A stretch of 64,000 bases of DNA from a virus (Duplodnaviria; Heunggongvirae; Uroviricota; Caudoviricetes): IMG/VR virus record IMGVR_UViG_3300047546_003009; one strand, 5' to 3'. This document shows, piece by piece, positions 4,547 through 45,621 of the stretch. Position numbers and translations under genes: made by a program. Every line of letters starts with the position of its first letter. Within the stretch, counting starts at the first letter, position 1. The notes beneath the pieces are model-generated. The model worked only from the letters and a program-made list of their open reading frames with translations, made no database searches and was not told where the DNA came from.

Positions 4547-4575
4547 ATTATACATAAAAACCTGTTGTCGGTCAA
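4547..4575 (-). promoter_or_regulatory. sigma70-type early promoter
   Basis: TTGACC-17 nt-TATAAT. Confidence 0.8.
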
Positions 4576-4594
4576 CATCCACTAACTTGTTGAT

Positions 4595-6903: not shown

Positions 6904-7118
6904 GTTTTCTTCAACCACGTTTTACCACAAACAAGACAGCTCATATGTGTTGTAGTTGTATTGGGGTCTTTATTTAATGGATTACCATATTTGTCGAATG
7001 TAGGAATCCAACCCAGGGCAGTGGTCATACTCATGCCTTGCTGCACTACACAATCTGTACGATCACAGTCTGGTGTAATGGGCTGAGCCTTTCCCACTTC
7101 GATTAGGAATTGTTTCAT
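6900..7118 (-). CDS. Hypothetical protein with four Cys (possible zinc ribbon)
   Basis: CDRTDC ... CLVCGKTW; overlaps gp46 stop and def start. Confidence 0.55.
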   Translation of the reverse strand: MKQFLIEVGKAQPITPDCDRTDCVVQQGMSMTTALGWIPTFDKYGNPLNKDPNTTTTHMSCLVCGKTWLKKT

Positions 7119-10370: not shown

Positions 10371-10907
10371 CTATTCATCCAAAAATATTTCGATTCCTTT
10401 CTTTTTCTTCTTTTTAGATTTCTTATCTTTCAGACTATCCTCAAAAGCTTTGATAAAGTCAACAGATTGTTGATCAACTTCTGTGTTAACAAACGTGTGA
10501 TCATCACCCTCCATTTGACTAATTAGATCATCAAACAACAGAGAGTTCTCTAATGATTTGTGCTTAACATACTGTTGCTTCTTCTCTTTAAGAATTCTTC
10601 TGAGAAATGCATAGTAAATGATCTGTGTGAAATAAGCGAAAGGATTAGTAGACTTTGCAGGGTCAAAATTGTCAAAATAGCTGATGCAATTTTCAATTCC
10701 ATCACTAATCATTTCATCTCTAAACGAATAGTTGATGAAGTTTGGCTTGTGCGATAATCGTTCTGCAATCATCATAATACACTCACCAACATAGTTTGGA
10801 ATAGGAGGCTTGTCAAGTTTCTTACGCTTTGCCTCTATACAATCATTTTTATATTGTACAATACATTCATATAACTGCTTATTATCTACATAATGATTAT
10901 CAGCCAT
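10371..10907 (-). CDS. gp55: Late-transcription sigma factor
   Basis: HYVDNK, YSFRDEMISDGIENC, NPFAYFTQIIYYAFLRRI.KEKKQ. Confidence 0.96.
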   Translation of the reverse strand: MADNHYVDNKQLYECIVQYKNDCIEAKRKKLDKPPIPNYVGECIMMIAERLSHKPNFINYSFRDEMISDGIENCISYFDNFDPAKSTNPFAYFTQIIYYAFLRRILKEKKQQYVKHKSLENSLLFDDLISQMEGDDHTFVNTEVDQQSVDFIKAFEDSLKDKKSKKKKKKGIEIFLDE

Positions 10908-26848: not shown

Positions 26849-27592
26849 TTAACCCACCATATCCATGACTGGTAATGAGAAGCTATCGATCATTTCTTTT
26901 TCCATCTCATCAAGTTTTGCTGTTGCATCGTCGTAAAGCTTCTGACCGTTAAATTGTACTCCACCAGGAAGCTGCATTCCTTCAAACTTAATTAAGTTTG
27001 AACCCCACTGCTGTTTAATAAGTTGTGTGCAGTAGTTTTGCAACCATCTATCGCCCCAAACATCAGTATAGGTTGTAGGGTCAACAATCTGATATGCTTG
27101 CACGACAATATAATCACCAACATTTACCTTTTCCCAATCCATATCAAGGTGGAGTGTGTTACGGTGACGATTGTAGCGGATAGGCTGCTTACCAACGAGC
27201 ATTTCCTGCAAGAACGCAATATGCTCCATGGCCATGTAGTATGGAATCATTGAAACACTGGTAAGCGTGTATAAATCGTTTAGAGCTATCTGATACCTAA
27301 TGTTAAACAGATCATCACTAGAAACTGCAGGATCACCAATAGGGAATAGGTGAACAGCACCAATCACATTATCGGGAAGTGTAATGTAGCGATCTGTTTT
27401 ATTTTGAGATGTTATTTGGTGTTTGTAATAAATCATCTCTGTGCCGTCAAAGTGGTAATCCCAGTAGTATTTTAACGCCTCGTCTATACGATCTTCAACC
27501 TGATCGTCATCAACGTTAATTTCAATAACTGGCTTACCAAGTTTTCTAAGGCAGTATTCTTTGAAGTCATTTCTTGTTGCAGGAACAGCCAT
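26849..27592 (-). CDS. gp13: Neck protein (head-tail adaptor)
   Basis: YCLRKLGKPVIEINV..DQVEDRIDEAL, QWGSNL.KF.GMQLPGG. Confidence 0.95.
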   Translation of the reverse strand: MAVPATRNDFKEYCLRKLGKPVIEINVDDDQVEDRIDEALKYYWDYHFDGTEMIYYKHQITSQNKTDRYITLPDNVIGAVHLFPIGDPAVSSDDLFNIRYQIALNDLYTLTSVSMIPYYMAMEHIAFLQEMLVGKQPIRYNRHRNTLHLDMDWEKVNVGDYIVVQAYQIVDPTTYTDVWGDRWLQNYCTQLIKQQWGSNLIKFEGMQLPGGVQFNGQKLYDDATAKLDEMEKEMIDSFSLPVMDMVG

Positions 27593-27620: not shown

Positions 27621-27628
27621 TATTTATA
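27621..27628 (-). promoter_or_regulatory. Late promoter TATAAATA (gp13)
   Basis: Exact consensus upstream of gp13. Confidence 0.85.
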
Positions 27629-27644
27629 TACAACAAGAATACAC

Positions 27645-28349
27645 CTAATCCTCTAATTTATCGTTTCTTTTTGTAGTTCTACCATCAAATGGTCGGGCTT
27701 TTATCGTTGTATCCGTTTTATCAGACATTACATCATACGCATACAAACCCTGGTGTGTAATGTTGAATAGGTCAGCTCTCAGCATAATATCCAAAGGTGC
27801 ACATATACCCATTTTTATTACGTGGGAAATTAAATTTTTTGCCATGGCTGGGTCAATACTATATGCATGTGCTCTACAAATAAAGTGATAATTTGGTCCT
27901 TCAGAAGCGTGTGGTGGAATTGGATATATCTTCCAACCTTGTTGAGCCCACTCAGAACCACCAAGATAAACTATTGAATTGTAGCTTTGATGTTGCTCGA
28001 ATCTTTCAACCATAACAGTATCGTGCTCAAGAATTACAATTGGTTTATCAATCTTCGCACAGTGAACCCACAAACTAACGTGGCTCAGAGCACAAGCAAC
28101 CTCGCCCCTTGTTAAATAATGATCAGTAATTTTTAGCATGTTCATCACACTACAATCTTTACTGTGATCAGGAACAATTATTGGACTGTTTAAACCATTA
28201 TATGCATCCCACACTTTGTAAGGCATTCCAACACGTTTACACGATTCTTGACACTGTGCTGAATATTTTAGTGAATTATCGTTATTTTTTAGCGTTATAA
28301 TATACGCCGACTCAACGTTTATATCGTTACTTCTAAATAAGCTTAACAT
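27645..28349 (-). CDS. Glycosyltransferase, GT25-like
   Basis: AYIITLKN, GEVACALSH..LW..C, IVILEHD, AHAY.I, PLD. Confidence 0.8.
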   Translation of the reverse strand: MLSLFRSNDINVESAYIITLKNNDNSLKYSAQCQESCKRVGMPYKVWDAYNGLNSPIIVPDHSKDCSVMNMLKITDHYLTRGEVACALSHVSLWVHCAKIDKPIVILEHDTVMVERFEQHQSYNSIVYLGGSEWAQQGWKIYPIPPHASEGPNYHFICRAHAYSIDPAMAKNLISHVIKMGICAPLDIMLRADLFNITHQGLYAYDVMSDKTDTTIKARPFDGRTTKRNDKLED

Positions 28350-28951
28350 AGTTTCACAAATGCTGTTTGAAGCATGTCAGGTAACCAAATTGGTTTTACC
28401 TTATGCCAGTTACATTGAATAAAGTTCTCAATCGCAACACGTGGATTCATCTGGGCACTGTAAGTACCGTTATTATCTTTAAATCTCCACTCGGTTGCAT
28501 CATCACAGAGAATAACACCACCCACCTTCAACATTTTAAATGATAATACCAGGTCCATCAGAACGGCACTGGCAAAATGATCCCCATCAATGTATACAAA
28601 TTCGGGTTGAACATTCTGGTTGATAAGGTCAATTAACCCATCCTCAGATTTTTTCTTGATGTAGTGAATGTTTTTTGTCGAACATTGAGAAATGTTTTTT
28701 TGGAATCTTACCCCGGCCGCAGCCATGTCCTCATGAATATCTACACTATCACTGTGAGGATCAATTGCGTAAATGTCTAGATGGGGATTATACTGATGCA
28801 GAACATCACCCATCCAACACGTTGTGTAACCCTCATAGCATCCAATCTCAACAATGGTTGAGGGGATGCCAAACGTGTTTATGATGTGGGAAATGTTCTT
28901 TTGAGTGGATTCAGGATTAAATGCAACAGTAAACTCATAATTTTTGGTCAT
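28343..28951 (-). CDS. Class I SAM-dependent methyltransferase (Methyltransf_24-like)
   Basis: IVEIGCYEGYTT, YAIDP, FVYIDGDH, LKVGGVILCDD. Confidence 0.85.
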   Translation of the reverse strand: MTKNYEFTVAFNPESTQKNISHIINTFGIPSTIVEIGCYEGYTTCWMGDVLHQYNPHLDIYAIDPHSDSVDIHEDMAAAGVRFQKNISQCSTKNIHYIKKKSEDGLIDLINQNVQPEFVYIDGDHFASAVLMDLVLSFKMLKVGGVILCDDATEWRFKDNNGTYSAQMNPRVAIENFIQCNWHKVKPIWLPDMLQTAFVKLC

Positions 28952-30653
28952 TTAAAATTTTCTCAATTTCTTGCTCATACTCAGCTTTGCCATATCGGCC
29001 AGGTTTATGAACCTGGATCAACATAATCATACTTTGAGCAACATTATTAAAATGGTTAAGCGCGTACGTCAACTCTTCGTTTGTAATTTCTCCACGTTGA
29101 ATCTTGTGTTGCCACGGCGCTGTGTAAACAAACTGCGTATCACACACATTAATATCTATATCATGTTCAAAAGCAAGTGGTGAATCACTTTCTCCTGCTT
29201 GAATCCGTTGCATTGCTTTTTGCTGATCAAACAAATTAAATAATCCAAGTGTTATAAGATGTTTATGACCTGGATCATCTAAAGCAGTATCACATCTCCA
29301 GTGAGGAACTTGAATTTCCCAGATGGCACCATTTTCACTAACGCGATACATTTCTTTAATAGCATGAACTGGATCATCAAGATGTTCAAACACATCTTTA
29401 GCTACGATATGTGTGTAGGTGTTTTCATTCCAAGGCCAATCTTTATTGAGATCAACAACTTCATCTGGTTTGACTATTGGAGAAATATCAACGTTGTGAT
29501 AACCCTTAAACTTCTTTAATCCACAACCCAGATTGAGCTTTTTGGCTTCTTTATCTTCGTTAGGCATATCAATGTGTTCAAGATCATATGATTCTTCTAA
29601 GCACTCATATATTTCTTGAAATGGGTCATTCCACTTACCGTATGTTTTTTGCCTAAACAAAAGAGCTGATTCATAATACGGTGTTGTGGAAGATGAAGGA
29701 GCTTTAAACGTCCACGTATGGTATGGAAGACATGGAACAACAATCCATGTTGGTTTGCCCATCGCTGCCGAAAGATGTGCAATACTCGTGCAGCTTGTAA
29801 TAACAAGATCAAGGTTAGAAACTGCAGCAGCTGTATCTTCCCAGCTTAACAACATATGTTGCAAATCAATAATGCCTTCGGGAAGAGATACTGTGTTATG
29901 GTCTCTCTGCAAACTATAAAGCTGCAGTTCCTCGTACTTAACCAGATTTGTTATGAAGTTTGTTGGGAACCGTCTGAATTGCTGATGCTCAAACTTAGGA
30001 TTGCCTGCCCAACGGATACCCACCTTAATTTTATCTGAGTTAATTAAACTTTTCCAGATGTTGACAGATTCTTGTTTAGCAGAAATGTACGGTGCGCTGA
30101 TGAAATTTTCAAATGTGTGACCAGCAACCCACCCAGCACTAAAACCAGGTACCCAAAAATCATGTTCAACTGTGTGAGCTTGATTGCGAAGTATAACATC
30201 ATCAACACCAGGAACTCGCTTAAACAAGCTTACAAGCTCGGGGGCAGCTGCAAGATATACTTTAGAGGCACCTAGTGCTTTATAGCTTTGTGCAAATCTT
30301 GCGTGAATGATCTCATCACCAAAACCACCTTCAAGGCTGATGATAATGGATTTACCCTTTATATCATACTGAGCTGGATTGTATATTGGTGCTTTTGTTT
30401 TTAGTGGTGGACTACCATAGACGTTCAAAAACCTACCATTTTCTAAAAGCTGACATCCGTTCTGGTAGTCGCCATCCTGAATCATAAACCAGCCACGGTT
30501 AAAACAATGGCGCATCCAAATGTCTTCGGTGTTCTTACCAAATGGGTCTAGAACACCTTTAGGACCAAGTTTTTCGAGCTTGTCAGATATTGCTCTGGCT
30601 TGTTCGTGCTTGCCCTCAAGCTGCAACTGTAACATTAAATCTATATCATGCAT
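28935..30653 (-). CDS. Helical-repeat + GT-B (GT9-like) glycosyltransferase fused to a C-terminal SAM methyltransferase domain
   Basis: EGGFGDEI..ARF, VGIRWAGNP, SLQ, LDLVITSCTSIAHLSAAMGKP; then KLNLGCG, DISP, DVFEHL, W.IQVPH. Confidence 0.75.
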   Translation of the reverse strand: MHDIDLMLQLQLEGKHEQARAISDKLEKLGPKGVLDPFGKNTEDIWMRHCFNRGWFMIQDGDYQNGCQLLENGRFLNVYGSPPLKTKAPIYNPAQYDIKGKSIIISLEGGFGDEIIHARFAQSYKALGASKVYLAAAPELVSLFKRVPGVDDVILRNQAHTVEHDFWVPGFSAGWVAGHTFENFISAPYISAKQESVNIWKSLINSDKIKVGIRWAGNPKFEHQQFRRFPTNFITNLVKYEELQLYSLQRDHNTVSLPEGIIDLQHMLLSWEDTAAAVSNLDLVITSCTSIAHLSAAMGKPTWIVVPCLPYHTWTFKAPSSSTTPYYESALLFRQKTYGKWNDPFQEIYECLEESYDLEHIDMPNEDKEAKKLNLGCGLKKFKGYHNVDISPIVKPDEVVDLNKDWPWNENTYTHIVAKDVFEHLDDPVHAIKEMYRVSENGAIWEIQVPHWRCDTALDDPGHKHLITLGLFNLFDQQKAMQRIQAGESDSPLAFEHDIDINVCDTQFVYTAPWQHKIQRGEITNEELTYALNHFNNVAQSMIMLIQVHKPGRYGKAEYEQEIEKILNDQKL

Positions 30654-30678
30654 AATTGACCTCCTTCAAATCACCTAT

Positions 30679-30686
30679 TATTTATT
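30679..30686 (-). promoter_or_regulatory. Late promoter variant AATAAATA upstream of the GT/MTase cassette
   Basis: Core TAAATA overlapping the RCC1 stop, approx. 25 nt before the GT-B start; SD GGAGG follows. Confidence 0.55.
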
Positions 30687-33600
30687 ACTGTTTAATAGCT
30701 CCTGCAAATCCAGGACCAGCACTCACAGATATCCAGTTAGATGTTCCAACCTGCACTGGGCTTGAACGGTTAGATGTATCATTCAAACCAAGCTCACCAC
30801 TACTGTTCTGACCCCATGCATATAGTTTGTTTGTGTTGCTAATAGCATAAGAAGAGTTATTGGCTGCTGATATTTTTGTGTATGATAAAGCACCAACTTG
30901 TGCTGGACTGCTAAAAAGTACAGATGTATTTGCTGCAACACCAGCAGCCCAACCACCCCACCCCCACAGTGTTTGATCGGATTTTATTGCAAGCGAGTGA
31001 CTTTTTCCTGCAGACACCTGTGTCCAACTAGATGAATCGAGAAGAGTTGGTCTAGCTTTTATAATGTTAACAATTGAATTTGCACCAACCTGTACTGGAC
31101 TTGATCTTGTTACTGTGGAATTGTCACCTACCATACCACCTGCTCCAGAAAGTCCCCACAGATACATTTGGCCAGTAGTATCGATTGCCCCATTAACAAA
31201 AATGTGATTACCTGAAGAAATAAGATTTGACCAATTGCTTAGAGCTCCTATCTGCACAGGAGAAGACCTCAAACCATTAATTGCCCCATTAATACCCAAC
31301 TCTCCGTTTGGATTGGCACCCCAGGACCAGAGCGTGCCATCGGCTTTTACACCAACCATATTTGATTGAGCGACACTAACACTTGTCCAACTACTTGTTC
31401 CAACCTGAACAGGACTTGATCTATTAACTACTGTTCCACTACCCAACTGTCCACTACCATTAGAACCCCACGTAAACAGAGCTCCATCTGAGCGGATGGC
31501 AGCACTTGAATAGTTTGCATAAATTAAAGTCCAGCTTGACGTACCAATTTGTACTGGTGATGATTTGCTAGCAGCTGTATTGTCTCCCAACTCACCATTT
31601 ATGTTATAGCCCCATCCATATAGCTTGCTATTAACATCAAGAGCAAGAGCATGTTGATTGCCAGCTGAAACTTGACTCCAACTGCTTGTTCCAACTTGAA
31701 CAGGACTTGAGCGAAGAGTTGCATCATTTAATCCTAACTGGCCTTGATTGTTTTGTCCCCAAGCCCACAATCCTCCATCGCTCTTCACTGCCAGAGCAAA
31801 CGCACTACCAGCCGATATCTTTGTAAAACTAATACCGACCTGTACTGGACTTGATCTTGTTACTACATCACTCAGTCCCAACTGCCCATTACCATTCAAA
31901 CCCCAAGCAAAAAGAGCGCCGTCGTTTCGTATCGCGTACATGCTCGTATCGTATAGCGCAGCTTGTGTCCAACTAGCAATTCCTAGAGCTTGTGGAACGC
32001 TAACAGCTGTATTAATAGCAGCAATGGATACATCACCCAAAACACCATCGGTGTTATACCCCCACACAAATAGCTTACCATCGGAACGTATCGCTGCTGA
32101 GGACGATGCTCCAACTAATATCTGGCTCCAACTAAGTTCAGGTGATGTCAATAACCCAAGCTGAGCTGAAGGGTTTTTACCCCACACATAGAGCTTGCTT
32201 GTTGAATCAGTGGCAACAACATGGCTAGCGTTAACAGATACCTGATTCCATGATGATGGAATATTATTATTAAGCATTGACTGCTGGATTGCTGTTTGTA
32301 CAGGACCGTATTGATGTACCCCACCTGCAGAATTATCACCTAGTACATCCCCGTTTGTGTTTCTACCCCATCCATATAACCTACCAGAAGAGTCAACAGC
32401 AGCTGAATTATATTCAGCACCAGCAGCACTTGAATGTTTTGAATAGTCAACTAACGTCCAACTTGATGTTCCTATTTGAACTGGTGACGACTTTGTAATA
32501 ACAGTCCCATCACCCACTTCACCATACGCGTTGCTACCCCACGCCCACAGTGTACCATCCAGTTTTATACCAGCACCACTTAAATATCCTGCCGTTATGG
32601 AAGTCCAGCTAGATGTACCAACCTGTACAGGGCTTGAACGGTTGGTTACACCGTTCTGCCCAAGCCTGCCATTTGCACCAGCACCCCATGTAAATAAACC
32701 TCCATCACTACGAATTGCACCCATCCATACACCCAAGCCACCAATACTGACTTGTGTCCAGCTTGATGTTCCAATCTGAACAGGACTCGATCTAAAGCCA
32801 CCAACAGCTGTTGTTGTAAATTCACCAAGTGATCCAAAACCATTTGAACCCCAAGTAAACAGCCCTCCATCAGTTCTTATTGCAGCTGTTTGCGATGCGC
32901 CAGCAGCAACTGACGACCATGAAGAGGTTCCAATTTGAACAGGTGAGGATCTTGAAATAATTGATGAATCACCAACCTGACCCGATGTGTTTAATCCCCA
33001 ACCCCAAAGAGTACCGTCGCTTTTTACAGCTAGAGCATAGTTAGATCCAGCTGATATGCTGTTCCAAACACTGGTACCTATTTGTACAGGACTTGAGCGG
33101 TTTGTTGTCGATGCAAGATTTAAACCTAGCTGTCCGTTACCATTTGCACCCCACGACCACAGTGTACCATCGTAACGAATAGCCACAGTATAGCTCGCAC
33201 CACAACCAACATTTGTCCACGAATCTCCAACAGCTCCAACCTGCACAGGACTTGAACGAGAAACAGCCGTGCCATCGCCCAGCTGACCGGTTGTGTTAAA
33301 ACCCCACATAAACAAAGCACCGTCACTGCGAATTGCACCCGTAAACCCCCACCCCTTTGATATTTTTGTCCATGAAAGAGGCTTCACCTGGATAGGATAA
33401 CCTTTGGCCGATGACGTATAATCACCAAGCTGATTGTTAGTATTGTCACCCCACATAAATAACGTTTTCGTGGTAGTTATGGCAGCACTTGTGTTTCCCG
33501 AAGCACTTACAATAGTCCAGCTACTCGTTCCTATTTGACCCAAACTGTTTCTTTGAGGTAAAGGAGTTGTTAGCACAGGGGAGTTTCTTGCAGTTACTGT

Positions 33601-34998
33601 GTTGTCTGCTAACTGTCCATTACTGTTCAGCCCCCACATATACAAAGCAGTTCCAATCAAAGCCCCTGCACCGGCCCCCGTTGATTTTCCTCCAGAAACA
33701 CTTGTCCAACTTGATGTTCCTACTTGTGTGGGGCTTGATCTGGCTACAGTATCTCCCTGGCCAGGAGCTCCATTTGTACCGTTACCCCACGACCATAGTG
33801 TACCATCGCTGGTACGCCGAGCGTATATATTAGCACCGCCACAATCAACCTGAGACCAGCTTGATGTTCCAATCTGAACAGGGCTCGATCTGCTGGTAGT
33901 ATCGTTCTGTCCAAGCTGTCCAGAGCTATTAAATCCCCAAGCAAATAATCCACCATCAATCCGCAAAGCAGCAGAAAAAGATACACCTGCACTCACCTGT
34001 GTCCAACTGCTTGTTCCAAGTTGTGTTGGATTTGAAAGATTGGTCGCATTGTTGGTTCCCAAACCACCACCCGCTGCCTGACCCCAGACATATAACGCAC
34101 CAGTTGTTACTAAACCCAGGGAATGTGTTTGGCCAGTAGCTACCAGCGTCCAGCTTGATGTGCCTACTTGTACAGGACTTGACCTATTTGTTGACGAGTT
34201 ATCGCCCAGCTGACCAAGATCGTTTCGTCCCCAAGTAAATAAAGCACCAGTTGTTTTTATTGCTGCAGTGAATGATGAACTACAATAAACAGATGCCCAG
34301 TTTGTATCCGTACCTATTTGCACAGGACTTGAGCGAGAAACAACTGTACCATCACCCAGCTGACCAGTTGTGTTTAACCCCCAAGCCCACAGCGTGCCAT
34401 CACCGCGAATTGCTGCCACATGACCCCACCCAGCTGAAGCGTTTTTCCAGCTTGCAGTTCCAACCTGTACTGGTGAAGACCTTGTTATTGTAGCATCGTT
34501 AAGTCCTAACTCACCATTTGTGCTAGCACCCCACGTAAACATCACACCATCGGTTCTCAGAGCCACACTATGTGTGGTGCTTCTGCTCACTTGAGCCCAA
34601 TACTGATTGTATGTGGTAACTTCGCCCAGTTGTCCACCCGACCCAAGTCCTTGAGTCCACAATGTTCCGTCACTTTTCACAGCAAGCATGTGACTTGATC
34701 CAGCAGCCACAGCGTTCCATGAACCGCTTCCTAAAGAAACGGGGCTGCTTGAATAATAACTTGCTGGCAGCTGCCCCCATCCCCATAGCGTACCATCAGT
34801 TTTAATAGCCGCAGTAAAATTATCACCCGTAGCCAGTGCTGACCAACTAGAGGTTCCTACCTGGACGGGGCTTGATCTAGACGTTAACGTTGAGTCACCA
34901 AGTTGTCCTAGAGAGTTTGAACCCCACTGAAACAATGGACCAGTTGTTGGTCCTGCTGTGGTCTGTTGCTGTACTAAAGCGAGAAACTTAGCTAGCAT
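30685..34998 (-). CDS. RCC1/BLIP-II repeat beta-propeller protein (28 repeats), probable virion adhesin/receptor-binding protein
   Basis: 28 WG-centred repeats of approx. 50 aa (LxxWGxNxxGQLGxxxxxxRSSPVQIGTSSW), counted by hand. Confidence 0.9.
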   Translation of the reverse strand: MLAKFLALVQQQTTAGPTTGPLFQWGSNSLGQLGDSTLTSRSSPVQVGTSSWSALATGDNFTAAIKTDGTLWGWGQLPASYYSSSPVSLGSGSWNAVAAGSSHMLAVKSDGTLWTQGLGSGGQLGEVTTYNQYWAQVSRSTTHSVALRTDGVMFTWGASTNGELGLNDATITRSSPVQVGTASWKNASAGWGHVAAIRGDGTLWAWGLNTTGQLGDGTVVSRSSPVQIGTDTNWASVYCSSSFTAAIKTTGALFTWGRNDLGQLGDNSSTNRSSPVQVGTSSWTLVATGQTHSLGLVTTGALYVWGQAAGGGLGTNNATNLSNPTQLGTSSWTQVSAGVSFSAALRIDGGLFAWGFNSSGQLGQNDTTSRSSPVQIGTSSWSQVDCGGANIYARRTSDGTLWSWGNGTNGAPGQGDTVARSSPTQVGTSSWTSVSGGKSTGAGAGALIGTALYMWGLNSNGQLADNTVTARNSPVLTTPLPQRNSLGQIGTSSWTIVSASGNTSAAITTTKTLFMWGDNTNNQLGDYTSSAKGYPIQVKPLSWTKISKGWGFTGAIRSDGALFMWGFNTTGQLGDGTAVSRSSPVQVGAVGDSWTNVGCGASYTVAIRYDGTLWSWGANGNGQLGLNLASTTNRSSPVQIGTSVWNSISAGSNYALAVKSDGTLWGWGLNTSGQVGDSSIISRSSPVQIGTSSWSSVAAGASQTAAIRTDGGLFTWGSNGFGSLGEFTTTAVGGFRSSPVQIGTSSWTQVSIGGLGVWMGAIRSDGGLFTWGAGANGRLGQNGVTNRSSPVQVGTSSWTSITAGYLSGAGIKLDGTLWAWGSNAYGEVGDGTVITKSSPVQIGTSSWTLVDYSKHSSAAGAEYNSAAVDSSGRLYGWGRNTNGDVLGDNSAGGVHQYGPVQTAIQQSMLNNNIPSSWNQVSVNASHVVATDSTSKLYVWGKNPSAQLGLLTSPELSWSQILVGASSSAAIRSDGKLFVWGYNTDGVLGDVSIAAINTAVSVPQALGIASWTQAALYDTSMYAIRNDGALFAWGLNGNGQLGLSDVVTRSSPVQVGISFTKISAGSAFALAVKSDGGLWAWGQNNQGQLGLNDATLRSSPVQVGTSSWSQVSAGNQHALALDVNSKLYGWGYNINGELGDNTAASKSSPVQIGTSSWTLIYANYSSAAIRSDGALFTWGSNGSGQLGSGTVVNRSSPVQVGTSSWTSVSVAQSNMVGVKADGTLWSWGANPNGELGINGAINGLRSSPVQIGALSNWSNLISSGNHIFVNGAIDTTGQMYLWGLSGAGGMVGDNSTVTRSSPVQVGANSIVNIIKARPTLLDSSSWTQVSAGKSHSLAIKSDQTLWGWGGWAAGVAANTSVLFSSPAQVGALSYTKISAANNSSYAISNTNKLYAWGQNSSGELGLNDTSNRSSPVQVGTSNWISVSAGPGFAGAIKQ

Positions 34999-35503
34999 TT
35001 AGTTCTGGCCACGTGATATTGAATGGATCGGGTTGTTGAGTGATATCTGCAAGAGATTGCATATACAAATCAAGCTTTTGTATATCATCTGTTGGTGTTA
35101 ATCCTAAGCGGAGCTCACGATCATACCGTAGGTATCTCCAATCAGTATCTGCCATCATTGTATCTCTTTGATGGCGTACATAACTCCATTGATTTTCTAT
35201 GACAGCAGCTTGATCTGCAGCTATTTGTGCTTCTGTTCTTACTATTGCAGGTTGTTCAGGAATTGTTTCAACCTCAAAAGTTTCTCTAACACCATTACCA
35301 TCAAAAATATACTTCAGCTTACCCAGACGTTGGCCAGCACCATATTCTGGAACCTCTTGACGAATCTTATACCAACCAAGCGTGCTAAGATATGAATCTT
35401 CTGTAGAAAGGGTATAGAAGTTACTAATGTTTTTCCAGTTTTCTGGAAGCTGATCATAAACACCAACAATCTCACCATTTTCAATATATGCAAAATTAGC
35501 CAT
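34988..35503 (-). CDS. Tail fibre assembly chaperone-like protein
   Basis: C-terminal WSYVRHQRDTMMADTDWR...YMQSLADITQQ.DPFNITWP pattern of phage tail assembly proteins. Confidence 0.75.
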   Translation of the reverse strand: MANFAYIENGEIVGVYDQLPENWKNISNFYTLSTEDSYLSTLGWYKIRQEVPEYGAGQRLGKLKYIFDGNGVRETFEVETIPEQPAIVRTEAQIAADQAAVIENQWSYVRHQRDTMMADTDWRYLRYDRELRLGLTPTDDIQKLDLYMQSLADITQQPDPFNITWPELNAS

Positions 35504-35940
35504 TATAGATTCTGCCCTGCTGTAAATGCTTGCCAGTTAGTTCCACCATCGATGGTGAAAAATGCAAACACATCACGTTTATTGTTTGTTGATGTAAGTG
35601 TTGGTGCTGTTCCACTAGGCCATCTAAATGATGTTGGCCATGTAACAGAGCGAGCTGTCCCATCGGCCGTAAACATTAAAATGAAACTGGTAGATTGCCC
35701 AGCTCCAGATGGATAGCTGGAAAGCGTCAATGTAGTAACGGCACTATTGAGATTCACATTAAAGATCGAAGAGCTGCTAAGATTGATCGTTAATGTGCTT
35801 GCTGAGATAGCAACATTTGAATATTCCTCAGCATAGTTAGAAAGAAGGCTGAGAACACCAGTTACGGTTGCTGTGTTTGCTATAGTAGCGTTGCCAGAAA
35901 CAGTCAAGCCGTTTCTGACGATAAAGTCTTTGGTGGCCAA
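35503..35940 (-). CDS. Virion fibre adaptor-like protein, TTG start
   Basis: TKDFIVRNGL N-terminus; C-terminal RSVTWPTSFRWPSGTAPTLT...DVFAFFTIDGGTNW domain frequent in phage fibres. Confidence 0.6.
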   Translation of the reverse strand: MATKDFIVRNGLTVSGNATIANTATVTGVLSLLSNYAEEYSNVAISASTLTINLSSSSIFNVNLNSAVTTLTLSSYPSGAGQSTSFILMFTADGTARSVTWPTSFRWPSGTAPTLTSTNNKRDVFAFFTIDGGTNWQAFTAGQNL

Positions 35941-35967: not shown

Positions 35968-35975
35968 TATTTATA
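35968..35975 (-). promoter_or_regulatory. Late promoter TATAAATA (adaptor-chaperone-RCC1 unit)
   Basis: Exact consensus; SD GGGGA downstream. Confidence 0.8.
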
Positions 35976-36542
35976 CTATCTCCACTTGGGACCATCAAAC
36001 CAAACAGCTAACGATCTTCTTAATCCTCGAGTCACAGGAAGCGCTGCGTGTGGTATAAACGAAGGGAAGAAAATAACAGTCCCTCGTTGTCGCAGTGCTT
36101 CTGGTATTGGTGGGGAAAGAGATAATTCATACAACTCTAAATCACCACCATCATACTCTGAAGGGTCCGACAACTGAACCACACAAGTAAGCTTTCTGTG
36201 ATAATATGGGTCGTTATTAATCCAAAAAACATCGTGGTGTTTTTTATATTCGCCCTGATCATCAGCTGAATATTCTGCTAGCTGAATATAATTCAGCTTT
36301 TGAATATGAAAACCAAACCACTCATCATTAGCCTGCAATGCCATCTTCCACAAGCTATCAAACAAATAGGTAAAAGTGCTATCTGTTTTTTGGATGAATC
36401 TGACTTTGCTTCGTCGATGTTGGTGATTGATGTTGCCTCCTGTTGTTCCATCCTGCACAGGAAGCTCCAACCCTTTTTCTATAATATAATCGCATTGCTC
36501 TGGTGTAAACGCAGAGCTAAAATAACACCACTCACCTCTCAT
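35976..36542 (-). CDS. 2OG-Fe(II) oxygenase (prolyl 4-hydroxylase-like)
   Basis: YKKHHD (HxD), RKLTCVVQLS, YDGGDL, FPSFIPH, VTRGLRRSLAVW. Confidence 0.9.
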   Translation of the reverse strand: MRGEWCYFSSAFTPEQCDYIIEKGLELPVQDGTTGGNINHQHRRSKVRFIQKTDSTFTYLFDSLWKMALQANDEWFGFHIQKLNYIQLAEYSADDQGEYKKHHDVFWINNDPYYHRKLTCVVQLSDPSEYDGGDLELYELSLSPPIPEALRQRGTVIFFPSFIPHAALPVTRGLRRSLAVWFDGPKWR

Positions 36543-38672: not shown

Positions 38673-39502
38673 TTAGTAGCCTCCAGTGCGGCGACTTTGG
38701 CGTTGAGTTCTTTGATTGAAGCCACGAGCAGCGGGATCACATCGGTGTATGCAAGGCCGAGCGTGCCATCAGCATCGTCTGCAACGTCTACTGCTTCAGG
38801 AAGAACCTGTTGCACTTCTTGAGCGATTAAAAATGCCCGCCGTTTCTCGTCCCAAACATATCTTCCGGTAACAGCGCTCAGGCTTGAAACCTTAACAAGC
38901 GCGTCCGTAATCGGAACGAGGTCAGTCTTTTGCCGTTTGTCCGAAATAGCTGTCCACGACGTAGCGCCATCGGAAAGATACACGCCACCCGACGCACCAC
39001 ACCGGACTTGAGCTTGGGAAACGGTCGTAATGTGACCAAAAAATGCGCCTTTTGCGCCTGCCGCAGACGAATCGCACAGCAGCGTTGCCCCGTTGGGTGA
39101 ATCCGCTGCGATAAGAATATTTGCATTCGCGCCGCCAACTTTTAGAGCGTAACCAGCGGTGCTGCTCGTCGTCCCCACTAACAAGCCGGTGCTGCTGGTG
39201 GTTGTAACCGTTACACCGTTAACTTGCTTGTAATGATTCTGACCAGTTGCAACGTTATGATATATATGACCTTGATCGGTACTACCAAACGTCAATACGT
39301 TTCCAGCATCAATACTAAGAAGATTAAGGTCGACGGTGTTTACCGAATTACGATACTTGATACTCTGACCAACTTTAAGACGAAGTTCGCCGGCCGATGC
39401 AACAGCAGATCCGATGGACAACGATGTAGTTAGCGAAGCACTAGTAAAACTAAGATTGGCTGCCGTGTCTATATTGGATGCTTTGACTAGAGTAAATGCC
39501 AT
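38669..39502 (-). CDS. Short fibre/spike with C-terminal Peptidase_S74 chaperone
   Basis: SDKRQKT, FLIAQEVQQVLPEAV, YTDVIPLLVASIKEL. Confidence 0.85.
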   Translation of the reverse strand: MAFTLVKASNIDTAANLSFTSASLTTSLSIGSAVASAGELRLKVGQSIKYRNSVNTVDLNLLSIDAGNVLTFGSTDQGHIYHNVATGQNHYKQVNGVTVTTTSSTGLLVGTTSSTAGYALKVGGANANILIAADSPNGATLLCDSSAAGAKGAFFGHITTVSQAQVRCGASGGVYLSDGATSWTAISDKRQKTDLVPITDALVKVSSLSAVTGRYVWDEKRRAFLIAQEVQQVLPEAVDVADDADGTLGLAYTDVIPLLVASIKELNAKVAALEATK

Positions 39503-42500
39503 TATACGTTCACCACTGTTCTAATTGTTTTAATTGTAGAATTAGCAGCTGTTGGTGAGATGAGAAGTCTTACGTTACCACCACTCACGTCCACATCAAA
39601 ACTCGCTAACGATGAGTTTGAATACACTTCACCGTAGGTCGAAATAAATGCCGCCGATCCATTATGTACAACAGTAGCTTCTGCCGCGTAGTACTGACTG
39701 TTTGTGTTGTCAGTTACCTGTATAAAATATTTAGCGGATCTGTAGGTTGTTGCTGAGAACTGATCACAAACCTGCTGCGATGTGTTTGATGTTGTTGCTG
39801 TGTTTGATTTAGCGTTACCATGAGTGAACGAAACATCACCCTCAGTTATGTAGAACTTGCCAAACGATTGGATTTCAACAATATCATTATTAGCTGCTGC
39901 CACTGCTAGAACAACAGTGTTACCTGTTGTTGCGGTATAATCAGCATTAGCAAGCTTAACACCGTTTACGTAAACTACTTCATAAGCCGGTGTGTAAGAC
40001 AGTGTGTTATTATAAGCATCAGCACCACTAAACGTTGTTTGATTGTTTGAAGCTGTATACTGAAAACGTCTATACTCAGCAACTGTACCTTGAGTTGACG
40101 AGATTGCTTGATATCGAACCTCAATCAAATCGTTGTTTGCTGGTGCAGAAGTAAACGTCAGTGTTGAGCTAGAAACAGAATAAACAGTGGTTGGCTGCTG
40201 GACAACACCATTAATTGTAACAATTGCACTATTGGTAGATGTTGACTGGCTTAGTGTATATACCGTGTTTGAACCATTGCCTGTATACTGATTATAGTAG
40301 TCGTAAAGAGTTACGACTGTACCGTTGGCCCAGTATATCGCAGATCCATTTGAAACAAGTATTTGACCGTTTGAACCAACACTACCGTTTGCAGAAATTG
40401 CAGAAACGGTCAGTGTGTTAGCAATCGTTACATTGTTTGTTGTTTTGTTAAACACGAACCCAGCGGTACCACCTATTGCACCAGAGTCATTAAACTGAAT
40501 GTTGGTGTTTGAACCACCAGGCGATGCGACAACTGATCCCCAATATGCATTTGTGCTAGCCCCACCAGAAACAAGAGCATAGCCAGCTGTTCCTGTTGAT
40601 CCATTAGCTGAAACAATACCACCAAGCGTTAGCTGTGTTGATGTTATTGTTGTATTACCAATAGCATGTGCTGTTGCATTAACTAGTGAATTTGCTCCAA
40701 CATACACGCCCAACGTGTTTGCTGTAGTAGTTGCTGTAGAATTAGCAACCACAAACGAGGTTGCTGTGTGGGTAGCATTAACTGTGGAGTTACCAACGTT
40801 AATCGTTGTTGTGCTAAGGTTTACATTGGCACCAACATTAACAGCCGTTGTTATGTTAGCCGTAGCTGGTAGACGAGCAGTGTTAAGAGTACCAGAATTA
40901 ATGTTTGTTGCATTGGTATAATAAGAACCAATCTCACCGTTGAAGTAATTTGCATTGTTTGCTGTCAACGTTGCAACATTAGCAGCTAATCCAGCTGTTG
41001 TTTGATAGTTGGCTAGATTATTGGTAAGGTTTGTCGATGTAACATAATTTGCTAAGTTAGATGATAGCTGTGCGTTTGATACAACGTTAACGGCAGAAAC
41101 ACTTCCTACAAACAATGTGTTGTTAGATGTTCCTGTATAATTTGTAGCGTTTACTGTAGCAGTTCCAATAGTCAGCACAGTAGATGAAAGCGCAGAATTA
41201 ACACTATCGTTACCAACAGAGACAAGAGATGAAACTGCAAGTGTGTTGGAAGTTAAACTCTCACCCACGACAGCACTATTTTGAACACTGAAATTACCAC
41301 CAATAGATATGTAATTTGGTGCTATAGTTGTACTTGATATTTCATTGAGTAAAGATAATGACGATGAGTTAATTGTTATGTTGGCTAACTGATCACCAAA
41401 TTCTATAGAACCTGTGCGAACAGATGACGGTGTTAAGTATGTGAATACCGAACTGTTACCAAGTGACATAAACGTAGCGTTTGCAAACATATTGTTTGCA
41501 TCAGCCATAATTAAAGCATCAAAACCTTCCAACTCAGAAATATACAGACCGTTACCACTTAGCTGCGTTTCTAAGAAGCTACCTTGCTTACGAAGCTTCA
41601 CACCTCTAGGCTCTATAATACAACTGTCCGTTCTATTTCCACCAACAAACACATAACCCGGTGTTATTGTCGTTTCTGTTTTTGAATTTGCAACAGAAAT
41701 TTTTGTTGGTATTGAATATGAAATGTTTGCAGATGCAGGACTTGTTGTTACAACTGCTGGGCGTACAACCCTGCTGTTTCCTGTTAGAGTAATATCAAAA
41801 CTAGTACCAAGCGTAAGATTAACTGTGGCCGCAGAGGACATATTTACAAAGCTGGACGACGACCCCACAGCAGAAACAGCAGTTTTAATATTCTGATTCC
41901 ACAATTCTATCTTTATTGTGTTTGAATCAACAAACGAAACAATTCTAAACGTTCCATTGAGAGACGTTACTGGTCCCGTACCACCAGGTTGCCATGATGC
42001 ATATGTACCTTGCACGCCAGATATTGTTATTGAGTTACCTGGTTGGCCAAACGCGTCTTTAATCTGCTGCTGAAAGCTTGGTGTAAGTCCTGTAAGTCTT
42101 ATATTTGCATAGTAAGACTTGGGAGTAGAAGTGCTGCTCGCACCTATTGCTTCAGTGTAAAATGTTGGGTTTCGATTTGTTAAGTTAAGTTTGGGACGTG
42201 TTACTGTAAATTGTGTTGAAGATGGTTTTGCAGATACCGTATAAGTGCCGTTAAAACGTGCGTCACTACACAACTGTACAAGTGCTGTATCTCCAACCTC
42301 AAGACCGTGTACAGCTGCTGATGTAAAAGTGCAAGTACCACTAGTTGTGTTTACTGAAGCAGAAGTAAGACCCACTGTCATGGTGCTTATAGCAAACTTG
42401 ATTTGATTTGCCGTTGGTAATTCGGTTACATTAAAAGTAAGATCATCAATGTAATCTTTGCCCGTACCAGTAACAGTTACAACCGTACCTGAAGGAGGTA

Positions 42501-43344
42501 CATATCGAGGTGTTCCACTTCCAAGATCAACTATTGGTATATTATGATCTGTTGATGTTTGTAGGGTTACCACACCAACACTTGATACGTTATATGTGGC
42601 AATTCCTTTTGTTGACACTGTTGGTGTGAGCACAACAACAGCATTTACCGTCGAGTTACCCACAAAAATAGAGTTTGCTGTTATTGCCGAATTACCACTG
42701 GAGTTACCAACAAAAAGTAATCCAGGATTAATTGTTGAGTTACTCGTTGAGTTAGAAACAGATATTGATGTAGGATTTAAAACGCTGTTAACTGTAGAGT
42801 TAGCAACAGAAATTGACAACGGTGTAATTGTCGAGTTACCTTGAGTATTAGCAACAACAATTACTGTTGTGTTAACGGTAGCGTTAGTTGATCCGTTACC
42901 CGAAAAGATAGCTGTAGCATTAATACTTGTGTTAACTGTCGAATTACCAACACTAATACCCTGGTTAATTGTAATAGAGTTAGCTTCAAACGTATTCGAA
43001 GAAATATTATTTGAACTAATTGTATTAGCAAAAAGAGACTCTACGTCAAAGTTTGTAGCAGCAGCGTTACCAGACCAGTAAACATTACCACCTGATCCTG
43101 CAGATGTTAAAATTTGTCCGGCAGTACCTTGGCCACCATTTGCGGTGATTGTTGTAGCAACCTGCAAACTTGTAAGGTTAGAACCAATCTCAAACGAAGA
43201 GGTGCCGTTAGACGAAAATAATTTTCTGTCTGTGAGATTAAGTGCTAGTTCACCCGTATCGATGAATGCACCGTTACCAGAATTGGTAGTATTTGGCGTA
43301 CGACCAGAAACGGCTGTACGCTTTATTTGAAATTTATTTGCCAT
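39502..43344 (-). CDS. Long tail fibre-like virion protein (1280 aa)
   Basis: QIKR..GELALN N-terminus, VGNSTVN beta repeats, HGLxxGD barrel repeats, C-terminal TYRSAKYFIQV domain. Confidence 0.75.
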   Translation of the reverse strand: MANKFQIKRTAVSGRTPNTTNSGNGAFIDTGELALNLTDRKLFSSNGTSSFEIGSNLTSLQVATTITANGGQGTAGQILTSAGSGGNVYWSGNAAATNFDVESLFANTISSNNISSNTFEANSITINQGISVGNSTVNTSINATAIFSGNGSTNATVNTTVIVVANTQGNSTITPLSISVANSTVNSVLNPTSISVSNSTSNSTINPGLLFVGNSSGNSAITANSIFVGNSTVNAVVVLTPTVSTKGIATYNVSSVGVVTLQTSTDHNIPIVDLGSGTPRYVPPSGTVVTVTGTGKDYIDDLTFNVTELPTANQIKFAISTMTVGLTSASVNTTSGTCTFTSAAVHGLEVGDTALVQLCSDARFNGTYTVSAKPSSTQFTVTRPKLNLTNRNPTFYTEAIGASSTSTPKSYYANIRLTGLTPSFQQQIKDAFGQPGNSITISGVQGTYASWQPGGTGPVTSLNGTFRIVSFVDSNTIKIELWNQNIKTAVSAVGSSSSFVNMSSAATVNLTLGTSFDITLTGNSRVVRPAVVTTSPASANISYSIPTKISVANSKTETTITPGYVFVGGNRTDSCIIEPRGVKLRKQGSFLETQLSGNGLYISELEGFDALIMADANNMFANATFMSLGNSSVFTYLTPSSVRTGSIEFGDQLANITINSSSLSLLNEISSTTIAPNYISIGGNFSVQNSAVVGESLTSNTLAVSSLVSVGNDSVNSALSSTVLTIGTATVNATNYTGTSNNTLFVGSVSAVNVVSNAQLSSNLANYVTSTNLTNNLANYQTTAGLAANVATLTANNANYFNGEIGSYYTNATNINSGTLNTARLPATANITTAVNVGANVNLSTTTINVGNSTVNATHTATSFVVANSTATTTANTLGVYVGANSLVNATAHAIGNTTITSTQLTLGGIVSANGSTGTAGYALVSGGASTNAYWGSVVASPGGSNTNIQFNDSGAIGGTAGFVFNKTTNNVTIANTLTVSAISANGSVGSNGQILVSNGSAIYWANGTVVTLYDYYNQYTGNGSNTVYTLSQSTSTNSAIVTINGVVQQPTTVYSVSSSTLTFTSAPANNDLIEVRYQAISSTQGTVAEYRRFQYTASNNQTTFSGADAYNNTLSYTPAYEVVYVNGVKLANADYTATTGNTVVLAVAAANNDIVEIQSFGKFYITEGDVSFTHGNAKSNTATTSNTSQQVCDQFSATTYRSAKYFIQVTDNTNSQYYAAEATVVHNGSAAFISTYGEVYSNSSLASFDVDVSGGNVRLLISPTAANSTIKTIRTVVNV

Positions 43345-43368
43345 ATGGCCCCTCTACTCTAGTATATA

Positions 43369-43569
43369 CTAGAAGGTTTCTTGTTGTGGTTCTTTCTTCT
43401 TACTTTTTGCAAACTTTGACTGCAAATCTTCAAGCTCAGTTTTCATTCTCTCATATTGCCTTTGAAGAAATTCGTGCTGAGCTTGAAGTAGTATTTTAGT
43501 CTTTTGCAACTCACTCATTTCCAAAATCAACTTTTCTACATAGATATTAATCATTTCAGGATTTGACAT
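43369..43569 (-). CDS. Small coiled-coil protein (possible fibre chaperone)
   Basis: Heptad pattern; between two fibre genes. Confidence 0.6.
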   Translation of the reverse strand: MSNPEMINIYVEKLILEMSELQKTKILLQAQHEFLQRQYERMKTELEDLQSKFAKSKKKEPQQETF

Positions 43570-43572
43570 AAT

Positions 43573-45621
43573 TTAGAACGTGCCTCCATCAAGTGTGCCA
43601 TAAGCAACAACACCACCACTTACTTGCAGCACGTACCCTTCAGAACCAACAGCTAGCTTTCTAAATCCGTTGGATGAGTTAGCAACAAGGATGTCTTCAG
43701 CTGTATACGATGAGTAACCAGTACCACCACTTGTTCCACCAAGTGCTGAGCTCAATGTCAGTGTGTTTGCAACAATCGCAACATTAACTGTTGAATTTGC
43801 TGTAATAGCAACAACAGATGAGTTTGTTGCAAGACCACCAGAACGTAAATATGTGTATGTTGTTGCTAGCTGGAACGAAGCATCATTGATATCGATGACG
43901 TTTGTTGTTGGTTCTTCATCATAATTCTTGAAGATGTAGAAGCTGTCATCAGCAGCGTGACGAATAACACCAGCGTGACGATTTGTTGCACCATCATAGT
44001 AGTTACCAACAAAACCAATATCAACAAGATCGCTGGAATAGTTATTCCCAGCAAGATATATCATCGGATCAGAAATTGTAACGCTATTAACGTTTGTCGT
44101 TGTTACGTTGCCTGTAACAACAAGATCGCCCGCAACTTGAACACTACCTTCAAAATAACCAGTTACTGAGTGAACATTAGAAACATGAATCTGGTTCCAT
44201 CTGACAGTATTGTTACCAATGCCGTATGTTACATTGGCAGAAGGCATCAGATCACTGTTGATCTGTGCATTAAATGTCACACGGTCACTTGCATTATCAC
44301 CAAGAGTTGTGTTTGCGTTTACAACAAGGTTGTTGTTTACTGTTGCTTGACCATTGATAACAACTGTATTTGAGAACGTGGCTGTATTAAGTACGGCTAA
44401 CGTACCATCTGTATCAATACCTGTTCCTGTAATTACAGTGTTAACAGACGAATTACCAACTCTAATATCACTCGTAGAAAGATTTACGTTTGCACCAACA
44501 TTCAACACACTTGAAACGTTTGCAGTTCCAGTTACGTTGAGGTTATTATTGGCAGTTGTAAGACCGTTAATTACAACACTGTTAGAAAATAACGATGCTG
44601 TGTTAACCTGGATGCCACCGGAAACAAGAAGATCACCTGAAGAAGTTGAGAGTACAGTATTACCAATTGTTAACGTCGTACCACTCAAGAACAAATCTTT
44701 GAATCTATTGGTAGTGTTACCCAAACTATAGGTAACGTTAGCACTTGGAATTATATCGCCAGTTATGTTAACGTTGTTACCAAGAGTTGTAACACCTGAT
44801 ACGTTCAACGTACCATTGACACTTGCTGAACTGCCCGTTATAATCGTGTTAACTGTTGAATTGCCAACTCTGATTTCTGTTGTCGACAACTTTACATTAG
44901 CACCAACATTTACTGCAGTTGCAACGTTAACTGTGGCAGGAAGTCTTGCAGTGTCCAGTGTTCCTGATGTAATATTTGTTGCGTTTGTGTAGTAAGATGC
45001 TGGCTGGCCATCAAAATACGTAGCGTTGTTAGCGCTGGTGGCACTATTTGCATTTCCACTAAATGCCGTCGAATTTAGTGTTCCCGAACCAACTGTAATT
45101 GTATTAGCAACAAAAAGCGTGTTGGTTGCTTTATCAAACGTAAAACCAGCTGTAGCACCAAGACTGCCTGAATCATTAAACTGTATCTGTGTATTAGAGC
45201 CAGATACGGTTACTGCCGCTGTCGTGTTTGCCCAATAAACTATTGTGCCGTTTGATGTTAAAACCTGGCCACTGGTTCCAACTGAACCGTTTGCACTAAT
45301 ACCACCAGTCAACGTTAGATTATTTGTTGACAGTGATGTCGAGTTAATAACAGTATTGACAGTTGTATTACCAAACTTCAATACGTCAATAAAATTACCA
45401 CTATCTGTAATAATAACAGCATTAGCAGAAACTGTTCCGGGTGTAGCTGAATGAACGTGTCCGTATTTTGCACCACCAATTCGTGTTACTGCACCACCGT
45501 TTGGGTTACCAATGAACAACGAATCTGATTGTGTATTACCAGAATAAGCTAGTTCACCATTTGCTAATGATCCTGGTTGTGTTGCTGTTATGGCTCTTTT
45601 TATCTGAATTAAATTGGCCAT
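43573..45621 (-). CDS. Tail fibre-like virion protein (682 aa)
   Basis: IQIKR..GELAY N-terminus, N/S/T-rich beta repeats, ends LDGGTF. Confidence 0.75.
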   Translation of the reverse strand: MANLIQIKRAITATQPGSLANGELAYSGNTQSDSLFIGNPNGGAVTRIGGAKYGHVHSATPGTVSANAVIITDSGNFIDVLKFGNTTVNTVINSTSLSTNNLTLTGGISANGSVGTSGQVLTSNGTIVYWANTTAAVTVSGSNTQIQFNDSGSLGATAGFTFDKATNTLFVANTITVGSGTLNSTAFSGNANSATSANNATYFDGQPASYYTNATNITSGTLDTARLPATVNVATAVNVGANVKLSTTEIRVGNSTVNTIITGSSASVNGTLNVSGVTTLGNNVNITGDIIPSANVTYSLGNTTNRFKDLFLSGTTLTIGNTVLSTSSGDLLVSGGIQVNTASLFSNSVVINGLTTANNNLNVTGTANVSSVLNVGANVNLSTSDIRVGNSSVNTVITGTGIDTDGTLAVLNTATFSNTVVINGQATVNNNLVVNANTTLGDNASDRVTFNAQINSDLMPSANVTYGIGNNTVRWNQIHVSNVHSVTGYFEGSVQVAGDLVVTGNVTTTNVNSVTISDPMIYLAGNNYSSDLVDIGFVGNYYDGATNRHAGVIRHAADDSFYIFKNYDEEPTTNVIDINDASFQLATTYTYLRSGGLATNSSVVAITANSTVNVAIVANTLTLSSALGGTSGGTGYSSYTAEDILVANSSNGFRKLAVGSEGYVLQVSGGVVAYGTLDGGTF

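Follow-up and report, generated by a model that had tools for sequence, protein, structure and literature searches.

What substrate three overlapping genes for sugar- and methyl-transferring enzymes serve inside the structural operon of a tailed phage is the question raised by the viral record IMGVR_UViG_3300047546_003009. The stretch analysed here, hereafter the window, comprises 64,000 nucleotides of a 151.6-kb parent contig, is part of a T4-like myovirus and carries every gene on the minus strand. Three minus-strand open reading frames (ORFs) exactly span positions 27645-30653, with overlaps of 17 and 7 bp between neighbours. They encode the core enzyme, a 572-residue fusion of a TPR-GT9-fold glycosyltransferase (GT) with a methyltransferase (28935-30653; assigned from profile, fold and motif conservation); an accessory 202-residue Methyltransf_24 O-methyltransferase-like protein (28343-28951; profile match); and a frequent accessory, a 234-residue GT25-family GT-A glycosyltransferase in which LEHD replaces LEDD (27645-28349; profile and fold). 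We propose that the fusion is probably a cytoplasmic protein O-glycosyltransferase for the propellers of the RCC1-repeat protein encoded immediately upstream, and that the GT25 protein and the methyltransferases would extend and cap the sugar.

In the order of transcription, the locus runs from a short tail-fibre-like protein (phrog_9017; 35503-35940), which opens the run, through a tail fibre assembly chaperone (Phage_tail_APC; 34988-35503), the RCC1-repeat protein (30685-34998), the fusion, the 202-residue methyltransferase and the GT25 protein to the neck gene gp13 (26849-27592). The RCC1-repeat protein has 1437 residues, about 27 blades and 21 SSP motifs, with residues 549-935 corresponding to one propeller; it is the proposed acceptor and a probable fibre-tip adhesin. 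A GGAGG ribosome site (30660-30664, minus strand) precedes the gene of the core enzyme. An earlier note, made from the letters of the window, had described a GT-B/methyltransferase fusion, a stand-alone methyltransferase and a GT25-like gene that overlap one another, and on this the ORFs, profiles and folds agree. Its placement of the cassette between the RCC1 gene and gp13 holds, with gaps of 31 and 52 bp, respectively, and so does its placement far from the DNA-modification genes, the 7-deazaguanine genes folE, queD and queE-like (3248-6422) being more than 21 kb away.

The structural model of the core enzyme (pLDDT 90.8) consists of helical residues 3-75, a GT-B domain (residues 94-358) and a class I S-adenosylmethionine methyltransferase (residues 369-550) that is generic, with no sugar-specific match. 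The GT-B domain has the two-Rossmann fold of the GT9 family, and its top four VIA-align matches, taken over residues 84-358, are all GT9-type, namely a Veillonella GT9 protein, WaaF, WaaC and TibC (Z 18.4, 17.3, 16.0 and 16.0, respectively). Sequence searches of the PDB returned no glycosyltransferase relative, and fold comparison alone gave matches. The PF01075 profile left the window protein unmatched and weakly matched seven of the 60 close homologues and 13 of the 30 wider ones, and the WaaC heptosyltransferase I model TIGR02193 scored 12.3 bits against a cut-off of 185.3. EGGxGD113, K220, R227, T289, H293 and the GNPKFEHQQ motif of the glycosyltransferase domain are invariant in 60 homologues, and the glycine motif (LNLGCG) and D389 of the methyltransferase are nearly so. 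From motif and position we infer that D113, the candidate catalytic aspartate after strand 1, is the counterpart of TibC D110.

A wider family profile matches TPR structures over residues 5-87, the nearest Atlas clusters include TPR-GT9 proteins, and the protein has the layout of FlmG, with an N-terminal TPR and a C-terminal GT-B domain. Because it has neither the beta-barrel nor the four-cysteine iron finger of the BAHT family, the fusion is not a BAHT member; its N-terminus is helical and TPR-like, C288 is the sole conserved cysteine of the glycosyltransferase domain, and the adjoining gene encodes an RCC1-repeat protein rather than an autotransporter. No clear transmembrane segment was found in any of the three cassette proteins. 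Purifying selection on the core enzyme is evident from comparison with the near-identical phage L037, in which 53 codon differences are synonymous and 3 are not.

To follow the core enzyme across phages, 80 viral loci, the window included, were collapsed at 95% identity into 52 groups, of which 50 were informative for the upstream gene. RCC1 lay directly upstream of the enzyme in 47 of these 50, once with a chaperone in between; the three exceptions have RCC1 elsewhere in the locus, RCC1 30 kb away, or a Thr-rich protein upstream without RCC1. RCC1 occurred in 48 of the 52 groups, compared with 11 for G-x-x repeats. Conversely, 16 of 22 loci selected for RCC1 contain an enzyme homologue, four are cut off, one has a non-orthologous GT8-GT9 protein directly behind RCC1, and one is unexplained. 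A gp13-anchored set avoids selection on either gene; it is a small sample, reading was confined to the region ahead of gp13, and genes were assigned with domain-only hidden Markov models that separate RCC1 and GT9 from chimeric proteins and GT2-methyltransferase fusions. This set contained three loci with both genes, 20 with neither, none with RCC1 only and two with the enzyme only, in which the upstream part is missing. Because both genes or neither are found, the RCC1-enzyme pair appears to be an accessory insert that is gained and lost as a unit. One complete genome classed as having neither does encode the enzyme, some 8 kb farther upstream, with RCC1 genes 2-7 kb before it, matching the prediction.

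The pairing extends beyond T4-like phages. A FastTree phylogeny of the enzyme has several weak nodes, and genomic context was read solely from the immediate neighbourhood; in several supported clades of this tree, T4-like neighbourhoods are mixed with non-T4 ones and RCC1 is retained. The enzyme is encoded in all four phage records with this RCC1 subtype (BUCT-ZZ01, S-SRM01 twice and AG-345-E08); the 20 records of the same collection with more distant RCC1 proteins gave no match to it. The isolated phage BUCT-ZZ01 (ON615601; RCC1 protein UTS52180), recorded on a Synechococcus host, defines the minimal core because fibre, chaperone, RCC1 and fusion occur there without GT25 or HldE, neither of which was found in its genome. 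A psbA gene was likewise not found in this phage, so the recorded host is to be taken with caution. As for the non-orthologous enzyme mentioned above, the GT8-GT9 fusion at L092:13237-14835 stands directly behind an RCC1 gene whose loops end in T-P, not SS-P, and is possibly an independent pairing.

The same pair is present in bacteria. A close clade of the enzyme (40-46% identity) was found in 9 of 251 Bdellovibrionota genomes; in eight it stands beside RCC1 genes, the methyltransferase being a separate overlapping gene in two, and in the ninth a GT25 protein 58% identical to the phage GT25s comes after it. The glycosyltransferase is retained in these copies, while the methyltransferase is missing or split off in most. 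The RCC1 proteins beside the enzyme carry twin-arginine-like leaders. The twin-arginine (Tat) pathway exports proteins folded in the cytoplasm, and because of these leaders the bacterial RCC1 proteins probably fold there, within reach of a soluble enzyme. On Bdellovibrionota chromosomes (L134-L141), pairs of RCC1 and GT9-like genes are often flanked by large fibre-like genes, with up to 15 RCC1 matches per genome. Three records with more distant, plasmid-borne TPR-GT9 proteins were viewed; in two of them the neighbour is a giant immunoglobulin-like protein or a filamentous haemagglutinin. In one record (L109:7375-9828; NZ_CP084273), a gene labelled ShlB/FhaC lies behind a filamentous haemagglutinin and has a TPR-GT9-like match in its final third, a misannotation or a fusion.

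A candidate site is offered by the blade loops of the RCC1 proteins. SS-P closes all 14 regex-defined loops of the window protein and 76% of the 1069 loops from linked loci; the 10 loops taken from four unrelated phage records all end differently. Within Bdellovibrionota, 49 of 84 loops in enzyme-bearing genomes end in SS-P compared with 9 of 171 in the others, a contrast that is confounded and possibly reflects one inherited event because the RCC1 proteins of enzyme-lacking genomes mostly belong to another, Cys-rich subfamily. The SS-P loop is a lead to the glycosylation site, not proof of it.

The core of the system is RCC1 plus GT9; GT25, the second methyltransferase and the heptose genes are accessory. 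GT25 is present in 40 of the 52 groups, the free methyltransferase in 17 and HldE/HldD in 15, and sugar-pathway genes (heptose, galactofuranose (Galf), sulfotransferase) are among the accessory neighbours in relatives. All three cassette genes occur together in 17 groups only, which does not bear out the idea of the trio as a fixed unit. The 202-residue protein matches Methyltransf_24 (PF13578; 66 bits, cut-off 26.3), its weak matches are O-methyltransferases, and the rhamnosyl O-methyltransferase model NF045824 scored 16.1 bits against a cut-off of 400. The 234-residue protein matches GT25 (PF01755; 59.3 bits, cut-off 24) and has a GT-A fold, with mimivirus R655 (Z 15.6), a beta-1,4-galactosyltransferase (Z 13.7) and, as fourth-best match, ColGalT1 (Z 10.6) among its fold neighbours. 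HldE is present in the five enzyme-bearing Bdellovibrionota genomes tested. No flagellin or Pse/Leg pathway genes were recognised among the common neighbours.

The earlier note had proposed other acceptors in the window, namely GPT collagen and fibres rich in N-x-S/T. Both features exist: N-x-S/T exceeds shuffled sequences in three fibres, and the fibre at 46491-48077 contains 21 collagen triplets, 13 of them GPT. In the two largest fibres (39502-45621), N-x-S/T and the reversed S/T-x-N number 59 versus 56 and 30 versus 29, respectively; in the collagen-bearing fibre they number 23 versus 18, which are small numbers. Because the reversed motif is equally enriched in the two largest fibres, the excess likely reflects beta-strand periodicity, and on this control we reject N-x-S/T sequons as acceptors. 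No N-glycosyltransferase family matched any of the three cassette enzymes. The collagen triplets contain no lysine for hydroxylysine glycosylation, which rules the collagen out as a ColGalT-type acceptor; a threonine-linked sugar on it is still conceivable. The expected co-occurrence of cassette and collagen was not borne out by the group counts given above, and in two gp13-selected phages with collagen the enzyme is absent from the region read. Virion glycosylation by the cassette thus survives as the best reading, with its proposed acceptors failing and RCC1 co-segregating instead, and the upstream RCC1 protein, no more than a landmark in the earlier note, is the better candidate.

Because ATAAATA is strand-biased and enriched before gene starts, late-type control is credible in the window phage. 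The motif class is real: 17 copies lie on the minus strand and 2 on the plus strand, and 10 of the 17 fall no more than 70 bp ahead of the start of a gene (6% would be expected; p ~1e-8). The trio stands behind a NATAAATA late-type site; this late-promoter-like site reads AATAAATA (30679-30686, minus strand), has one mismatch to TATAAATA and overlaps the RCC1 stop codon. A perfect TATAAATA site (35968-35975, minus strand) precedes the fibre-chaperone-RCC1-cassette run, and another (27621-27628, minus strand) lies between cassette and gp13 and serves gp13, not the cassette. Together with a gp55-like gene (10371-10907; recognised by sequence and position), an upstream (T/N)ATAAATA gives the arrangement of a T4-like late gene, as judged from sequence. 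Among the relatives, ATAAATA occurs in 18 of 52 distinct upstream regions, several have ATAAGTA and several have sigma70-like sites. Sigma70 and terminator scans gave results at chance level. The late-type promoter of the earlier note is therefore present in this genome, with its mismatch, but late control is not universal among relatives. Eight loci (L004, L005, L007, L012, L020, L021, L042 and L077) have a conserved ATAAGTA upstream of the enzyme at the position occupied elsewhere by ATAAATA, possibly a variant late promoter.

The proposed mechanism follows the logic of two known enzymes, TibC, a proven O-heptosyltransferase that modifies the adjoining adhesin, is encoded beside it and uses an aspartate base (PMC4358343), and FlmG, a Caulobacter flagellin O-glycosyltransferase with a GT-B domain whose TPR domain selects the substrate (PMC7591256). 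Late in infection, the soluble core enzyme would bind newly made RCC1 protein, probably through its TPR-like N-terminus, and with Asp113 as base would place a first sugar on serines, most plausibly in the (R/K)-S-S-P loop that recurs from blade to blade. A nucleotide sugar supplied by the host or by accessory phage genes would be the donor, perhaps ADP-heptose where HldE/HldD occur. Extension by GT25 might follow, as might O-methylation by the two methyltransferases, one fused and one free. The modified propellers would be mounted on the tail fibre, where the glycan may stabilise the adhesin or tune its binding. A complex prediction with one RCC1 propeller, the glycosyltransferase domain and ADP, run without controls, scored 0.00; it gives no verdict and is not used as evidence.

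Several observations weigh against this mechanism. By fold, the LPS (lipopolysaccharide) heptosyltransferases WaaF and WaaC match the core enzyme no worse than TibC (Z 17.3 and 16.0 versus 16.0). In one close relative (L046/L047), the upstream gene encodes a different, Thr-rich protein and RCC1 is absent from a 61-kb stretch, and a podovirus has a distant enzyme homologue behind its capsid gene with RCC1 not nearby. The SS-P contrast within Bdellovibrionota is confounded as described. HldE/HldD occur in no more than 15 of the 52 groups, and searches of the complete BUCT-ZZ01 and S-SRM01 genomes did not find HldE. Common neighbours though they are, heptose genes are missing from these two Synechococcus-recorded phages, and the LPS of Synechococcus is reported to be without heptose (PMC4377996), so ADP-heptose is only a candidate donor.

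GT9 and GT25 are classically LPS enzymes, and the cassette could instead remodel the host envelope by acting on the core of LPS or on a different surface glycan. It might, for instance, mask the receptor of the RCC1 adhesin and so keep progeny from sticking to debris or superinfecting, and the linkage would then be that of lock and key. The tie of WaaF and WaaC with TibC, the LPS-like appearance of the heptose, Galf and sulfotransferase genes in relatives, the sigma70-like sites upstream in some of them and the interpretation of comparable phage genes as host-surface modifiers (PMC12801897) favour this explanation. We nevertheless regard it as unlikely, as the core enzyme scores far under the WaaC cut-off and has a TPR N-terminus and no clear transmembrane segment, the same pair stands in Bdellovibrionota chromosomes beside Tat-leader RCC1 proteins, the window genome has a late-type site, and the minimal module is carried by a phage whose recorded host is Synechococcus. 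It is similarly improbable that other virion proteins are the ones glycosylated (GPT collagen, Asn/Ser/Thr-rich fibres, capsid or tail tube), as in the earlier note and in mycobacteriophages. The fibres are indeed Ser/Thr-rich, the nearest fold of the GT25 protein is R655, a putative collagen glycosyltransferase (Z 15.6; PMC9546862), and the podovirus homologue and the Thr-rich protein of L047 fit such acceptors; against this stand the equally enriched reversed sequons, the collagen without lysine, the rarity of G-x-x repeats relative to RCC1 and the two collagen phages without the enzyme in the region read.

The RCC1 link could also be real and the chemistry different, the methyltransferases acting on the protein itself or the GT9-fold protein serving mainly as a folding factor or maker of a free ligand. 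Methylation of a tail protein by host MepM is reported to be needed for adsorption (PMC13445384), and the fused methyltransferase is generic; we find this quite improbable given the invariant glycosyltransferase active-site motifs, the Bdellovibrionota copies, most of which keep the glycosyltransferase but lack the methyltransferase or have it as a separate gene, and accessory genes that belong to sugar pathways. Phage GT-B and GT-A enzymes glycosylate DNA bases, and PHROG labels weakly suggest a DNA methyltransferase for the 202-residue protein. That the cassette hypermodifies phage DNA is nonetheless scarcely credible, since it lies amid virion genes, more than 21 kb from the 7-deazaguanine genes, tracks RCC1 and not replication genes, and in bacterial chromosomes adjoins exported proteins.

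Protein O-glycosylation of the serine-rich RCC1 propellers, preceding their assembly, is therefore the explanation that we prefer. More tentatively, it may be a widespread and portable system in which TPR-GT9-fold enzymes recognise and decorate SS-P loops of Cys-poor RCC1 propellers, both in tail adhesins of large myoviruses and in Tat-exported proteins at the surface of predatory Bdellovibrionota, with swappable tailoring genes (GT25, methyl- and sulfotransferases, heptose pathway).

Among known systems, TibC/AAH with TibA/AIDA-I (PDB 4RAP) share the GT9-like GT-B fold (Z 16.0, root-mean-square deviation 2.9, 245 residues aligned), a gene beside a repetitive Ser-rich adhesin and a conserved aspartate after the first strand as candidate base. 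Unlike them, the phage enzyme has a helical TPR-like N-terminus, no beta-barrel, no four-cysteine iron finger and a fused methyltransferase; its partner is an RCC1 propeller, not an autotransporter, and heptose is no more than a candidate donor for it. FlmG resembles it in combining a TPR N-terminus with GT-B, in being cytoplasmic and in a proposed Ser/Thr acceptor in a co-regulated surface protein, a likeness of layout; the phage TPR spans about 75 residues versus 313, a methyltransferase is added, and no flagellin or nonulosonate pathway lies nearby. WaaC and WaaF (GT9; PDB 2H1F and 1PSW) have the same fold (Z 16.0 and 17.3, respectively) and ADP-heptose genes occur in 15 of the 52 relative groups, but identity is 12-15%, the score lies far under the family cut-off, and the phage enzyme adds TPR and methyltransferase in a virion-gene context. 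Mimivirus R655 and human ColGalT1 (GT25; PDB 9CRZ and 8ZGC), the best and fourth-best fold matches of the 234-residue protein, are 15-16% identical to it; the phage collagen offers no hydroxylysine substrate, and the activity of R655 is itself putative (PMC9546862). For mycobacteriophage Che8 and relatives, phage-encoded glycosyltransferases have been proposed to decorate the particle (Freeman et al. 2023, cited in PMC11256854 and PMC12619734). As far as these citing papers describe it, that system has capsid and tail tube as acceptors; here it is a GT9-fold enzyme, also shared with predatory bacteria, that large aquatic-type myoviruses link to a probable tail adhesin.

Virion glycosylation was already known from mycobacteriophages, and adhesin glycosylation by a neighbouring GT9-fold enzyme from bacteria; what is documented on virion glycosylation in tailed phages comes mainly from the capsids and tail tubes of mycobacteriophages. 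We found no paper on the RCC1-GT9 pairing in the literature searched, most subscription papers lying outside it. The present analysis contributes a control anchored on gp13, the tests on reversed sequons and on lysine in the collagen, a comparison of loop motifs inside one phylum, and a cultured phage in which the module is minimal. If the proposal is true, a receptor-binding-type protein of many large myoviruses would be a glycoprotein made by its own dedicated enzyme, and GT9-fold protein glycosyltransferases would gain a new acceptor class. It would also matter for host range, for how Bdellovibrionota recognise their prey and for the LPS-like gene clusters of phages, which are usually explained as host-surface remodelling. 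The portable system, if real, would give a function to part of the large uncharacterised group to which the core enzyme belongs (about 19,800 clusters at E<=1e-10). The isolation of BUCT-ZZ01 with a minimal module makes the question directly testable.

Because the nearest relatives of the window's major capsid protein come from phages of Stenotrophomonas (DLP6, 72%) and then of Sinorhizobium and Methylophilales (64%), we left the host unassigned. In the podovirus mentioned above (L108:9422-12855; MW202512), TPR-GT9, FkbM methyltransferase and galT-like genes lie shortly past the major capsid gene, and the part viewed shows no RCC1; they are a candidate set for capsid glycosylation. Three records labelled cyanophage (L112, ON073792; also PP438404 and PP438434) state differing hosts at the same length of 42,586 bp; the viewed region has bacterial-looking genes (polysaccharide export, dockerin), and misassigned DNA is possible. 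In the close relatives L194-L196, L244, L247 and L260, the slot just before gp13 is filled by another recurrent enzyme, of about 420 residues, with a GT2-like start and a methyltransferase-like part; it is accompanied by 2OG (2-oxoglutarate) oxygenases, with no RCC1 adjoining. A 2OG-Fe(II) oxygenase gene, of a kind common ahead of gp13 in relatives, also lies just upstream of the fibre run in the window (35976-36542) and could encode a hydroxylase of collagen prolines. The 7-deazaguanine pathway region (1085-6422), which probably serves DNA modification, holds folE (3248-3958), queD (4595-5107), a queE-like radical SAM gene (5529-6422) and a phosphoribosyltransferase gene; in the relative L193, a GT1-like gene stands immediately behind queD. 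The phage further encodes a peptide deformylase (6385-6918).

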